Shown: positions 45,683 to 49,320, counted from the stretch's first letter. The stretch: DNA of 64,000 nt from Escherichia coli (GCF_003790525.1 NZ_CP033635.1), one strand, 5' to 3'. Notes: generated by a model from the sequence alone, not told the origin. Translations and numbers: made by a program.

Positions 45683-46666
45683 CTACGCGCCGTAGTTCTG
45701 GATATAGTGCTCTATCAGCGAAATAAGCCGCGGGTTATCGATGCTCTGCAGAATTGTGACCTGTGCACCTTTTGGTTCAGGGATCCCAATATTGAGGCGT
45801 AATGTGTCACGTCCATAGCAACAAGTCATTCCGCGTGTAATGCCTTCCAGAGATACATCCAGATAATCTTCAGCCGTTGTTGCAAGAGAGGGATCCAGTA
45901 ACCAGGCAATGGTTAACACATCGTGGATCCAACACCCAGGCAGATTGCGGGTTTGCATAGAGTATGTAATCCATGGTCGAATGGTTTGTGCCAAATAACG
46001 GCTAAGCCCGTTTTCTGTTTTTGCTAGACGATCCAAATCGGCGTGAAGCATTTGGGTTTGCGTTGTCACATCCATCGGGACCAGCGTGACTGGCGCACCG
46101 CTGGTGAGCACCGCATGAGCCGCCTCAGGGTCCAGACCAAAATTTGTATCTTTCAGGTAGCCTGGAACATTGAACACGCCACCCATAACGACGATATTTT
46201 TGACCGCGTGAACAATCTGCGGGTAAAGCTGCAGGGCGATGGCTACATTAGTGAGGGGGCCGGTAGCAACCAACGTTATTTCGCCTGGATTACGACAGAT
46301 GAGTTCACCTATTGCTTCAGGCGCATGGGGTTCTACCTGCTGGCACAATGCTGGAGCAGGAACATTCGACCAGAGTTGCCGTAAACCAAACTGATCGACA
46401 CCATGATCCAGTTTTTCACGCCAGGGTTGCGGATCTTCCAAGAGCGCACGCGAGGCACCACGGTAGACCGCAACAGGAATATCCAATTGTGTAATGAGAT
46501 CTCTAGCGACCGCATATCCCACGTCTACCGGCGTATTTCCGGCAACAGTGGTGATCATTTCCAGCGCGATTTGCGGTGCGGCAATGGCCAGCGCCAGCGC
46601 CAGACCGTCGTCGATATTAGCGCCGGGAATGCCGTTCCCCGGATCGCAGTCAATAATGATACGCAT
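45683..46666 (-). CDS. inosine-uridine-preferring nucleoside hydrolase family protein; start taken at MRIIIDCDPG
   Basis: ORF 45683..46771; DCDPGxxD N-terminal aspartate cluster. Confidence 0.8.
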   Translation of the reverse strand: MRIIIDCDPGNGIPGANIDDGLALALAIAAPQIALEMITTVAGNTPVDVGYAVARDLITQLDIPVAVYRGASRALLEDPQPWREKLDHGVDQFGLRQLWSNVPAPALCQQVEPHAPEAIGELICRNPGEITLVATGPLTNVAIALQLYPQIVHAVKNIVVMGGVFNVPGYLKDTNFGLDPEAAHAVLTSGAPVTLVPMDVTTQTQMLHADLDRLAKTENGLSRYLAQTIRPWITYSMQTRNLPGCWIHDVLTIAWLLDPSLATTAEDYLDVSLEGITRGMTCCYGRDTLRLNIGIPEPKGAQVTILQSIDNPRLISLIEHYIQNYGA

Positions 46667-46676
46667 CGATTCATTT

Positions 46677-47708
46677 TCACTTTTTCTCGGGTTGAACTTC
46701 ATGCCCTTGGCAGCCACACGACTCTCCTGTTCGTAAATAAAACTCAAATTCAACACGGCGAACTTCTCCATCCCAATTTTTCAGCATGTCAATTGCCGCA
46801 CGGGCCATCTTATCGACAGGTTGTCGAACGGCGGTTAAAGAAGGGACGTTATAAGCCGATTCTTGTGTTGCGTTAAAGCAGACCAGCGCAACATCTTCAG
46901 GAACGCGCAGCCCATGTTCTGCCAAAGCGCGTAAACAGCCGAGAGCCTGTTGTTCATTTGTCGCGAACAGGGCGCGTGGCAGTTGGTGCTCAAGCATGCG
47001 TTTTGTCGCCTCGTAACCGCCGGCGCGGGTATAGTTGGTCGAAAAAATCCATGAGGGATTGACCACTAACGATGAGGCTTCCAGCGCCTGCTGCCAGCCC
47101 CGGATACGATCCTGAGTATTCAGCATTTCACGCGGGCCGCAGATGATGCCGATGTCGCGGTATCCGTGATCAATAAGATGTTGTGTTACCTGCATCGCCG
47201 CCAGTTGTTCATCAACCTGGATAACGCTGACGTTAAGCCCAGGATCCACACGATCGAGCATGACGCAGGGGGTACCGCTCTCCTGAATCAAATTGATATA
47301 AGGATGGCGATCAACACTGGTGTAGATCAGCCCGTCAACCTGGCGGTGTAGCATATTATTAATGAGTTCACGTTCACGGCAGCTACTATCGCCTGCGTCG
47401 CCCAGCAGGAGTACTTTGCCATCAGCAAAGGCTTCGTGTTGCAGGGCATGAGCCATAGAGGCGATAAACGGGTTCGAGATGTCCGGAGCGACTAGCCCAT
47501 AAGTTTGCGTACTCCCTGAAGCCAGCGCACGCGCGATGCCATTGGGTCGATAACCGGTTTTCTTAATGGCCTGTAGTACACGTTGTCGGGTCGCTTCGGC
47601 AACGGGGCGCGGGCCATTATTAATAACGTAACTAACGACAGCGACGGATGTCCCTGCTTCTTTTGCCACGTCAGAACGTGTTACGCGTTGTGAATGTGAT
47701 TGAGTCAC
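46677..47708 (-). CDS. LacI-family transcriptional regulator
   Basis: 343 aa ORF with N-terminal HTH (TRSDVAKEAGTSVAVVSYVIN) and periplasmic-binding-protein fold. Confidence 0.85.
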   Translation of the reverse strand: MTQSHSQRVTRSDVAKEAGTSVAVVSYVINNGPRPVAEATRQRVLQAIKKTGYRPNGIARALASGSTQTYGLVAPDISNPFIASMAHALQHEAFADGKVLLLGDAGDSSCRERELINNMLHRQVDGLIYTSVDRHPYINLIQESGTPCVMLDRVDPGLNVSVIQVDEQLAAMQVTQHLIDHGYRDIGIICGPREMLNTQDRIRGWQQALEASSLVVNPSWIFSTNYTRAGGYEATKRMLEHQLPRALFATNEQQALGCLRALAEHGLRVPEDVALVCFNATQESAYNVPSLTAVRQPVDKMARAAIDMLKNWDGEVRRVEFEFYLRTGESCGCQGHEVQPEKK

Positions 47709-47812
47709 GAAGCACCTACCTGATTGCGTTCAGAGTGATTTTTTCCAGACAGCATAAGGCGTTATGACCCAAAAATCTTTGGTAAAGAACGCGCATCTCA
47801 CGTTCTCTGGCC

Positions 47813-49207
47813 TTAAATTGCATCCTCGGGTAAGTTGAGATCCCGTCCGCGAGTCTCTGGTGCAAAGAAAGTGGTCACCAGTCCAATCGCGGCCATAAAG
47901 GCGAAATAGATAGCGATTGGCCACCAGTGCCCGTAATACGAGAGTAGCGCAGAGGCGATAAGTGGTGCAGTCCCGCCAGACAGAATGGAACCGAGCTCTT
48001 TTGCAAATGCCATTTTGGTATAACGATTAGTGACACCGAAAAGCTCAACGCCCCACGCAGCCTGAACACCAAAAATACCCAGTGAAGCCAGCCCCATCCC
48101 GGTAATGATCGTCGGGATAACAATCCACGGCTCACGAGAATCCAGCAACATAAATGCCGGAAAGGCATACAGGATCAGTAACAAGCAGAACCAACGATAG
48201 ATGATACGTCTACCGAATCTATCGGACAGCCAACCCGCCAGAGGAATAATGGCAAATCCCAGAACGGATGCAATAAGTACAGCTGCCGTGGGTACGGACT
48301 TATCCACCATCAGTACTTTCGCGACATAGCCAATGATAAATCCCTGAGCGAGATAAGAAGGACCATTCTCTCCTATGCGTAATCCGACCATGGTCCAGAA
48401 GGCACGGGTCCGTTTCCAGAAGCTACGACTGTCATGTTGTTGCTGTGCTTTTTCCTCACGAATAACCTTTTCTCGTTCAGCCTGCAGAAGGGCTTTTTGA
48501 CGTTCAAAGACTGGTGTTTCGCGTATATGACGACGAATTAATAGAGCTGCAGCAGCAATAAGAATGCTGCAAAGAAAAGGAATACGCCATCCCCAGCTTA
48601 ATAAGTCATCCTTGTCCATTTGCAGGACGATGAGCCAAACCAGCGAAGCCAGTAATGTTCCGCTGTTCGAACCCAGACCAATAACAGATGAAACCAGTCC
48701 ACGTCGTTTAACGGGAGCATATTCACCAAGCATCACAGTACCGCCTGAAAGTTCCGCTCCTGCTCCCAGCCCCTGAGAAAATCGAAGGATAACCAGACAT
48801 ATCGGTGCCCAGACGCCTATCTGGGCGTAACTGGGGATTAATCCTATTAGCATGGTCGACATGCCCATCAATCCAATAGTGATAACCATGACAATTTTCC
48901 GACCATGTTTATCGCCTATCCAGCCGAATAGTAATGCACCAATAGGGCGGGCAATAAACCCAACAGAATAGGCGGCAAAGCTGGAAAGTAATGCCATGAC
49001 GGGTGTCGCCTCCGGAAAAAAGACATCGCCAAAGATAATACCTGCGGCAAGGCCGTACAGGGCAAAATCGGCATATTCCATCGTGGTGCCTAACCAGCAG
49101 GAAACTGTTGCTCGCCAAAACTCGCGGCGTCCCTCGGAGGTTTCCAGCCGCTCCTGAGCTGCCTGTTGGTTATCTGTCAGGGAAACAGTGGATGAATGCG
49201 TGTTCAT
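47813..49207 (-). CDS. MFS metabolite:H+ symporter family transporter
   Basis: 464 aa 12-TM ORF with GWIGDKHGRK motif. Confidence 0.8.
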   Translation of the reverse strand: MNTHSSTVSLTDNQQAAQERLETSEGRREFWRATVSCWLGTTMEYADFALYGLAAGIIFGDVFFPEATPVMALLSSFAAYSVGFIARPIGALLFGWIGDKHGRKIVMVITIGLMGMSTMLIGLIPSYAQIGVWAPICLVILRFSQGLGAGAELSGGTVMLGEYAPVKRRGLVSSVIGLGSNSGTLLASLVWLIVLQMDKDDLLSWGWRIPFLCSILIAAAALLIRRHIRETPVFERQKALLQAEREKVIREEKAQQQHDSRSFWKRTRAFWTMVGLRIGENGPSYLAQGFIIGYVAKVLMVDKSVPTAAVLIASVLGFAIIPLAGWLSDRFGRRIIYRWFCLLLILYAFPAFMLLDSREPWIVIPTIITGMGLASLGIFGVQAAWGVELFGVTNRYTKMAFAKELGSILSGGTAPLIASALLSYYGHWWPIAIYFAFMAAIGLVTTFFAPETRGRDLNLPEDAI

Positions 49208-49262
49208 AAGAACTCCTTGATATTATCCGTCAGATATACATCACAGGTAGATATCTTTCTTA

Positions 49263-49320
49263 AATCTACTCATGTAGATATTGTGTTTTATTACATATAA
49301 ATAAATCTACTCGCGTAGAT
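49263..49320. promoter_or_regulatory. two similar dyad-symmetric sites (ATCTACTCATGTAGAT and ATCTACTCGCGTAGAT) upstream of the MFS/LacI/hydrolase operon; candidate operators
   Basis: palindromes read directly in sequence, about 55-110 bp upstream of the first gene. Confidence 0.45.

Follow-up and report, generated by a model that had tools for sequence, protein, structure and literature searches.

A mobile transporter, LacI-family regulator and N-ribohydrolase cassette of Escherichia coli with two palindromes predicted to be its own operators

The uridine operon uriR-rbsK1-uriT-uriH of Corynebacterium glutamicum (Brinkrolf et al. 2008, as cited in PMC3350403) places a LacI/GalR-type repressor, an importer of the major facilitator superfamily (MFS) and a ribose-releasing hydrolase of the IUNH family under local, negative and autoregulated control. 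By analogy, it is the closest counterpart of the subject of this work, an accessory gene cassette in a stretch of 64,000 nucleotides of E. coli DNA (GCF_003790525.1, NZ_CP033635.1; hereafter the window, with positions counted from its first letter). The cassette codes for an MFS transporter, a LacI-family regulator and an IUNH-type N-ribohydrolase, and two palindromes stand in front of its first gene. Its proteins are not orthologous to those of the uri operon: the regulator scores 158.4 bits against the UriR equivalog (cut-off 550) and the hydrolase 138.3 bits against UriH (cut-off 450). The E. coli cassette also lacks a ribokinase gene, and it has a gene of the MgtC/SapB family and a seven-residue loop insertion in the hydrolase. 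Its operator consensus is ATCTACGCGCGTAGAT, whereas the UriR operator is cre-like according to the title of the C. glutamicum paper.

Other described systems share parts of this design. The E. coli hydrolases RihA (YbeK), RihB (YeiK) and RihC (YaaF) resemble the cassette enzyme in their calcium-binding aspartates, in a His–Asp pair and in fold (TM-scores of 0.75–0.87 to YeiK and RihA), but the cassette enzyme is only about 26–28% identical to them, carries the insertion, and comes from an accessory locus with its own transporter and repressor. In Bifidobacterium, comparative-genomics predictions associate one RbsR paralogue, RbsR3, with rihC-rihT-nupC-rbsK and a second with iunH-iunT (PMC4746261); here too a LacI-family paralogue of the ribose repressor accompanies a nucleoside hydrolase (NH) and a dedicated transporter, but the operator consensus (TGATAAAACGTTTTATCA), the phylum and the transporter types differ (PMC4746261). 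The lac operon, like the cassette as we read it, has a CRP site upstream of the promoter, in-phase palindromic operators and a LacI-family repressor encoded nearby. The cassette differs from lac in that the regulator gene lies inside the operon, the operators are 41 bp apart, and the regulator, as read from its sequence, has no C-terminal tetramerisation heptads of the LacI type; looping by one tetramer is therefore unlikely. A literature search returned no paper on this regulator group, operator motif or cassette. The regulator's recognition helix was also looked for, together with nucleoside-related regulogs, in the portion of the RegPrecise-derived tables of PMC4052901 available to us; this turned up only UriR, AduR and HpxR, none of them from Enterobacterales, and a prior in silico annotation is possible.

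On comparative sequence evidence, the two palindromes are almost certainly binding sites of the cassette's own repressor. An earlier note on this DNA had described three co-directional genes for a transporter, a LacI-type regulator and a hydrolase, with paired dyads in the promoter region. All three genes exist, and open reading frames, Pfam domains and RefSeq annotation place them on the minus strand (table 1). Both dyads are exact copies of ATCTAC-N4-GTAGAT, 41 bp apart from start to start; the proximal one (O_p) ends 56 bp and the distal one (O_d) 97 bp upstream of the ATG of the transporter gene. No other exact match occurs in the window, where about 0.004 would be expected by chance (an estimate from base composition alone), and a scan allowing up to two mismatches, with a shuffle mean of 1.9, yielded one further match, which has two mismatches. 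The family consensus ATCTACGCGCGTAGAT is a perfect, even palindrome of 16 bp with CG at its centre, from which O_d differs at one position. At the place of O_p, the Citrobacter and Raoultella orthologues have ATCTACGCGAGTAGAA, 42 bp from O_d. An additional GTAGAT/ATCTAC half-site at 49247-49256 (GTAGATATCT), between O_p and the ribosome-binding site, was considered as a third operator and ruled out, the half-site not being conserved in relatives; it is probably fortuitous. An Rfam scan of positions 44000-51000 gave sub-threshold matches only, none of them at the dyads.

The same arrangement recurs across the Enterobacterales. A scan for proteins related to the regulator, in which each species was represented by a single genome, gave 20 orthologous loci (68–98% protein identity) in Citrobacter, Raoultella, Enterobacter, Mixta, Intestinirhabdus, Cedecea, Pluralibacter, Erwinia and Edwardsiella, all 20 with the gene order transporter, regulator, hydrolase; homologues of the hydrolase led to four more, in Yersinia, Providencia, Xenorhabdus and Serratia. 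The three genes are syntenic in all 24 isolate loci, amid unrelated flanking genes, and in each locus the dyad lies upstream of the transporter gene, 56–113 bp from the start codon. Elsewhere within these loci, each of 9–44 kb, the motif is essentially absent (one chance match with one mismatch). When the promoter regions are aligned on the operator, this site is the sole near-invariant block and its surroundings diverge freely. Variants between species, for example TTCTAC...GTAGAT and ATCTAC...GTAGAA, break the symmetry of the dyad without compensation; a protein-binding DNA site is therefore favoured over an RNA stem. In Intestinirhabdus alba (locus L012, about 6330-6440), a GC-rich insertion of some 100 bp splits the proximal operator, leaving ATCTAC and GTAGAA far apart, and the distal operator alone is intact.

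The motif tracks the regulator, and not the transporter, the hydrolase or the host; its retention in distant cassettes, its absence from loci without the regulator, its position in metagenome contigs and a shared recognition helix all show this. Half-site and recognition helix are both unchanged in distant cassettes at 59.5–72% GC. In the 59.5% GC locus, whose hydrolase is 44% identical to that of the window, two sites that abut each other, ...CTACTCGCGTAGAT and ATCTACGCGAGTAGAT, stand in front of genes for transporter, LacI-family regulator, NH and MgtC. The 72% GC locus (hydrolase 49% identical, BLASTP) has the same four genes behind four GGGTAGAC repeats with a 13-bp period. In a 70% GC locus, genes for a PfkB kinase, a LacI-family regulator, ABC permeases and an NH occur together, and TTCAACGCGCGTAGAT lies upstream of the first gene. 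Both loci that combine transporter and NH genes without the regulator lack the dyad. Metagenome contigs were scanned for the exact 16-mer ATCTACGCGCGTAGAT, which was found at no fewer than 80 loci; among the matches listed, 67 could be assessed and 13 were too near a contig end. An orthologue of the transporter (at least 60% identity) lies directly downstream in the correct orientation in 49 of these 67, and a LacI homologue does so in four, so that 53 of the assessable listed matches are directly upstream of one or the other; the remaining 14 adjoin no cassette gene. Every regulator beside the motif, even one with 38.7% overall identity, has the recognition helix TS[VATQ]AVVSYV[IVL]N (TS.AVVSYV.N), which reads TSVAVVSYVIN in the window.

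The suggestion of the earlier note that the dyads are LacI-type operators thus gains from their family form, from their near-invariance in the promoter alignment and from their tie to the regulator gene, and its proposed search for the dyad elsewhere, applied to the isolate loci and the listed metagenome matches, found the association exclusive to this type of regulator rather than widespread. A survey of some 1300 LacI-family regulators found even palindromes with a central CG for 1173 of 1303 regulators (about 90% of motifs), more than one site in about 20% of regulated operons, and autoregulation for 72% of regulators (PMC4052901). The operator consensus of the cassette family fits this rule, being an even 16-bp palindrome with central CG, 56–113 bp from the start codon, of a local regulon predicted to be autoregulated.

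Two side observations concern the arrangement of sites. Packed or overlapping operator arrays, with offsets of 13, 14 and 16 bp, occur in high-GC relatives (L029 3186-3232, which consists of four direct GGGTAGAC repeats; L037 and L042, offset 14 bp; L032 1-30). In the Enterobacteriaceae, by comparison, the spacing is 41–42 bp, and the mode of multi-site binding may differ. Stand-alone LacI homologues with the same recognition helix have a perfect operator before their own gene (L038 7179-8584, L052 2606-3688, L071 and L080). No transporter or hydrolase gene, and no clue to a substrate, was found among the neighbours in L038 and L052; the targets of these regulators may lie elsewhere in the respective genomes.

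Comparison of the promoter regions across species, which is the sole source of the promoter positions proposed here, suggests how the sites may work. In relatives with a single operator, which is homologous to O_d in most of them, sigma-70-like promoters have TTGAyy and TAyAyT 16 bp apart, and the operator takes up this whole interval (TTGACC...TACACT in Yersinia, TTGATA...TATAAT in Erwinia, TTGATC...TACACT in Cedecea). The E. coli, Citrobacter and Raoultella lineage has a poorer -35 hexamer and the second operator 41–42 bp downstream, and TATAAT, TACAAT or TACTAT stands directly upstream of the proximal operator in the inter-operator spacer of relatives. Occupation of the distal site would probably block the core promoter, and that of the proximal site would cover the transcript start or a second promoter. 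Beyond what the earlier note had described (it had given neither the strand of the genes nor the fourth co-oriented gene, treated below), we noticed a CRP-like site at 49344-49359. It matches TGTGA-N6-TCACA at eight of ten positions, with perfect GTGA and TCAC cores. Matches of this quality are common by chance; when the best CRP-like match within 120 bp was taken from each of 17 taxa, it fell 39–41 bp from the operator centre in 14 of them. Since the operator lies within the -35/-10 spacer of the single-operator taxa, this candidate CRP site would be near -60.

Taken together, these features very probably describe a self-contained mobile catabolic cassette, in which the dyads are the operators of its own repressor and act in a CRP-dependent switch for riboside uptake and hydrolysis. 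In the model that we infer, which extends to DNA binding, repression as opposed to activation, the role of CRP, the promoter positions, the inducer and the substrate, the minus strand would carry in order the promoter, the transporter, the repressor, the N-ribohydrolase and probably the MgtC/SapB protein. Each 16-bp palindrome would be bound by one repressor dimer, the distal site in or beside the core promoter and some 39 bp downstream of the CRP site, and the proximal site, another 41 bp (four helical turns) downstream, over the transcript start. Without inducer, the repressor would sit on both sites and keep the operon, and with it the repressor's own gene, at a low, autoregulated level. 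The inducer, possibly the imported riboside itself or one of its products, for example ribose, would bind the repressor and release it from DNA, after which transcription would depend on cyclic AMP–CRP; the transporter would then bring in the riboside, and the hydrolase would cleave it to ribose and base.

The hydrolase is well supported as a member of its family. Its PF01156 match is given in table 1, its AlphaFold (AF2) model has a pLDDT of 96.5, and Foldseek aligns the model with probability 1.00 and TM-scores of 0.75–0.87 to YeiK/RihB, RihA, the protozoan IU-NH and the plant NRH, at about 28% identity. The earlier note had asked for a comparison with rihA, rihB and rihC: in sequence terms, the gene is an orthologue of none of them, because it scores far below each NCBIfam equivalog cut-off (161.8 bits against 433 for RihA, 128.5 against 459 for RihB and 155.7 against 382 for RihC). 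The calcium-binding fingerprint departs from the literal DxDxxxDD spacing. It reads D6-C-D8-PG-[NGIPGAN]-I-D19-D20, that is DxDx(10)DD, with an insertion of seven residues. This insertion is found in 118 of 120 close homologues, the other two having no match to the motif in their first 80 residues, and also in many representatives of clusters at 50% identity; all PDB sequences examined align with a seven-residue gap at this point and none carries it. The insertion variant defines a large and diverse IUNH subfamily. Throughout it, there is no variation in the four aspartates, in Asn175 or in Asp249, and His248 is conserved in at least 90%; the catalytic histidine precedes the third calcium-ligand aspartate, IH248-D249 aligning with LHD of RihA. 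Because all four aspartates are invariant, the metal site is probably kept despite the insertion, and the same residues, with Asn175, Asp249 and the nearly invariant His248, make a calcium-dependent N-ribosidase mechanism of the group I type likely (mechanism summarized in PMC8910321). A purine or pyrimidine preference was sought from residues of helix alpha-8 by the rule given in PMC8910321, and dropped because the positions could not be mapped reliably. Changes at the equivalents of IU-NH Asn160 and Glu166 were considered as a sign of a modified 5' group on the sugar, but we draw no such conclusion: the alignment is ambiguous in this stretch, and an acidic residue is retained, Asp in the cassette enzyme and Glu in most subfamily members.

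Among subfamily models, the transporter matches TIGR00883, the metabolite:H+ symporters (MHS), best, at 389.7 bits along its entire length, which is below the cut-off. In one GenBank plasmid record it is called 'MHS family MFS transporter', and the equivalogs that it matches best are shikimate and ProP transporters. None of the other three proteins is as well conserved across phyla: the transporter is 62–64% identical to its counterparts in 60–72% GC organisms. The regulator has an N-terminal LacI-type helix–turn–helix (PF00356, 50.8 bits, cut-off 27) followed by a periplasmic-binding-protein-like effector domain (PF13377, 116.6 bits; PF00532, 101.9 bits), and its nearest NCBIfam models are RbsR, CcpA, CytR and PurR, all below cut-off.

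The MgtC/SapB-family protein (PF02308, 122.9 bits, cut-off 31.4; C-terminal ACT_4, 24.1 bits, below the cut-off of 27) is probably encoded by the fourth gene of the operon, to judge from its position. Its gene follows the hydrolase gene in E. coli, Citrobacter, Raoultella, Enterobacter and Mixta, and also in the distant 72% and 59.5% GC cassettes (L029 7091-7834 and L032 3511-4218, respectively), where the protein is 32–41% identical to that of the window. It is missing from loci of the Yersinia, Serratia and Cedecea type and from all 32 hydrolase-containing metagenome cassettes among the matches listed. The recurrence of MgtC suggests a functional link with the cassette.

The part of the model that leaves most room for an alternative is the substrate. 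The dyads would bind the LacI-family protein of the cassette and the regulation would be the same, but the substrate could be a non-canonical riboside or glycoside, such as a modified, carboxylated or pyridinium riboside; we consider this unlikely, though deserving of some weight. Several features are in its favour: the transporter is nearest to the MHS subfamily, with shikimate and ProP transporters as best equivalogs; the hydrolase, only about 28% identical to any characterized enzyme, has a conserved seven-residue insertion in DxDxxxDD that occurs in no solved NH examined; and the unusually high conservation of the transporter across phyla (62–64%) suggests one specific substrate. Members of the NH family also act on non-nucleoside ribosides, for example nicotinamide riboside (PMC10474468, PMC11241417). 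Against these points, the ribose- and calcium-binding residues and the catalytic His–Asp pair are conserved, and all group I NHs hydrolyse pyrimidine nucleosides according to a review (PMC8910321). The named proteins nearest to the regulator are RbsR, CytR and PurR, and the genomic context of relatives is one of ribosides and nucleosides: a PfkB kinase gene lies in the L031 operon, and in L028 genes for PpnP and a nucleobase (xanthine/uracil) permease are next to the transporter–NH pair. A more specific form of this idea, which we put forward as speculative and doubtful, is that the long-loop NH (DxDx10DD), the MHS-like transporter and the recurrent MgtC form an uncharacterized module for a non-standard riboside, which moved between Actinobacteria-like high-GC organisms and Enterobacterales and is now on conjugative IncF plasmids in E. 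coli.

A second alternative concerns the ligand of the dyads. They could be sites of another protein, such as a global regulator of the host or a product of an IS or plasmid, that adjoin the LacI-family gene by coincidence, which is very unlikely. Their half-site, ATCTAC, is unlike the commoner LacI-family half-sites, which are of the TG.AA type; this would suit such a reading. But the motif travels with this type of regulator from Enterobacterales to 72% GC organisms, which have no host-specific factors in common; it stands before stand-alone homologues of the regulator and is absent where the regulator is absent, and no other feature co-varies with the recognition helix. Moreover, the chromosomal genes around the cassette are unrelated to it in genera such as Citrobacter and Yersinia, with no adjoining insertion sequence (IS) seen. 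That the dyads are hairpins of a 5' leader RNA (attenuator or stability elements), or chance palindromes, is barely credible: a 6-bp stem and a 4-nt loop are possible in each and the region is AT-rich, but the species variants break the pairing and it is base identities that are conserved, not just complementarity, the site of the single-operator relatives lies between -35-like and -10-like hexamers and so upstream of any transcript, and chance cannot yield conservation in 24 of 24 loci or the association in metagenomes.

Several points weigh against the repressor-controlled riboside switch that we prefer. LacI-family hinge helices insert at the centre of the operator; O_p, with TG at that place, may be the weaker site and might be bound poorly. 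For the E. coli copy, the -35 and -10 hexamers are only weakly assigned, and no gene-strand promoter passed the thresholds of a sigma-70 consensus scan. The 80 listed metagenome loci are a sample and possibly a biased one, and the motif was surveyed in cassette loci and metagenome contigs, so that further members of the regulon elsewhere in a cassette-bearing genome are possible. On the side of the substrate, characterized MHS members carry organic acids and zwitterions rather than nucleosides, and the score of the transporter itself is below the MHS cut-off (443.45 bits). With the insertion in the metal loop, the substrate could lie outside the canonical nucleosides.

The coordinates of the features are collected in table 1. 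In the operon, 104 bp separate the transporter gene from the regulator gene, ten bases lie between the stop codon of the regulator gene and the start of the hydrolase gene, and 63 bp separate the latter from the MgtC/SapB gene, a gap in which a terminator-like site was looked for and none was found. The longest open reading frame of the hydrolase begins at 46771 and overlaps the regulator gene. Its true start is the ATG at 46666 (MRIIIDCDPG...), chosen because RefSeq uses this ATG in the identical chromosomal copy (L001) and because it puts the N-terminal family motif at its usual place.

Table 1. Coordinates of the cassette, its predicted control sites and its flanks in the 64,000-nucleotide window.
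Feature	Position	Strand	Evidence and remarks
Distal operator O_d (predicted)	49305..49320	minus	gene-sense ATCTACGCGAGTAGAT; + strand ATCTACTCGCGTAGAT; homologue of the one operator that most relatives have
Proximal operator O_p (predicted)	49264..49279	minus	gene-sense ATCTACATGAGTAGAT; + strand ATCTACTCATGTAGAT; central CG changed to TG in this E. coli copy
AT-rich inter-operator spacer	49280..49304	minus	-10-like hexamers; probably part of the core promoter; promoter alignment
Candidate CRP site	49344..49359	minus	gene-sense AGTGATCTCCATCACG; centre 39 bp upstream of O_d centre; predicted from sequence
Ribosome-binding site AAGGAG	49213..49218	minus	5 nt to the start codon of the MFS gene; read from sequence; conserved in relatives
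MFS transporter gene	49207..47813	minus	464 amino acids; Pfam MFS_1 and Sugar_tr; RefSeq
LacI-family regulator gene	47708..46677	minus	343 amino acids, GTG start; Pfam LacI and Peripla_BP; RefSeq
IUNH-family N-ribohydrolase gene	46666..45683	minus	327 amino acids; PF01156, 235.8 bits; RefSeq
Calcium-binding fingerprint codons (residues 6-20)	46607-46651		DCDPGNGIPGANIDD; DCDPG-NGIPGAN-IDD
MgtC/SapB-family membrane protein gene	45619..44906	minus	Pfam MgtC and ACT_4; probable fourth operon gene
Segment shared by chromosomal and IncFII plasmid copy	44511..49417		99% identity, blastn
IS256/Mutator and IS4-type transposase fragments, left flank	42561..44749	+	Pfam Transposase_mut, Tnp_DNA_bind, DDE_Tnp_1; RefSeq pseudogenes
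IS3-family genes and fragments, right flank	50120..52026		Pfam rve, HTH_Tnp_1

The cassette is accessory and horizontally mobile, as its reported position between IS remnants had led the earlier note to propose. IS remnants flank it on both sides, and its 3.8-kb core is present in 256 of 5426 complete E. coli genomes (4.7%), at 201 chromosomal and 62 plasmid places, nearly always with at least 99% identity. It occurs on 37 PLSDB plasmids (36 from E. coli and one from Salmonella), 35 of which are predicted to be conjugative. Homology to Citrobacter amalonaticus, at 89% nucleotide identity, extends over positions 44904-49364 and spans exactly the four genes and the control region, which suggests an origin in a Citrobacter-like lineage.

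Some further features lie around the cassette. The island that contains it (positions in L001 are those of the window minus 25599) is riddled with IS elements and many transposase pseudogenes; it also has duplicated genes for aspartate and C4-dicarboxylates (aspartate ammonia-lyase, Dcu transporters and asparaginases) and the dgo galactonate operon. Two terminator-like hairpins, the second of them bidirectional, lie upstream of the control region at 49443-49472 and 49629-49647, just outside the plasmid-shared segment that ends at 49417. The sub-threshold Rfam matches include Ysr202 at 49624-49714 (29.8 bits against a gathering score of 315) and, within the IS3-family flank, a weak match to the ALIL pseudoknot at 50436-50492.

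As a type of system, the cassette is conventional: a local LacI-type repressor over uptake and first-step catabolism. It provides a testable regulon for an accessory cassette, with an operator, a matching recognition helix, a probable CRP input and the target genes. It also brings to view a large IUNH subfamily with an altered metal loop; the recurrent association of this subfamily with a particular transporter, and sometimes with an MgtC-family protein, could guide the discovery of its substrate.

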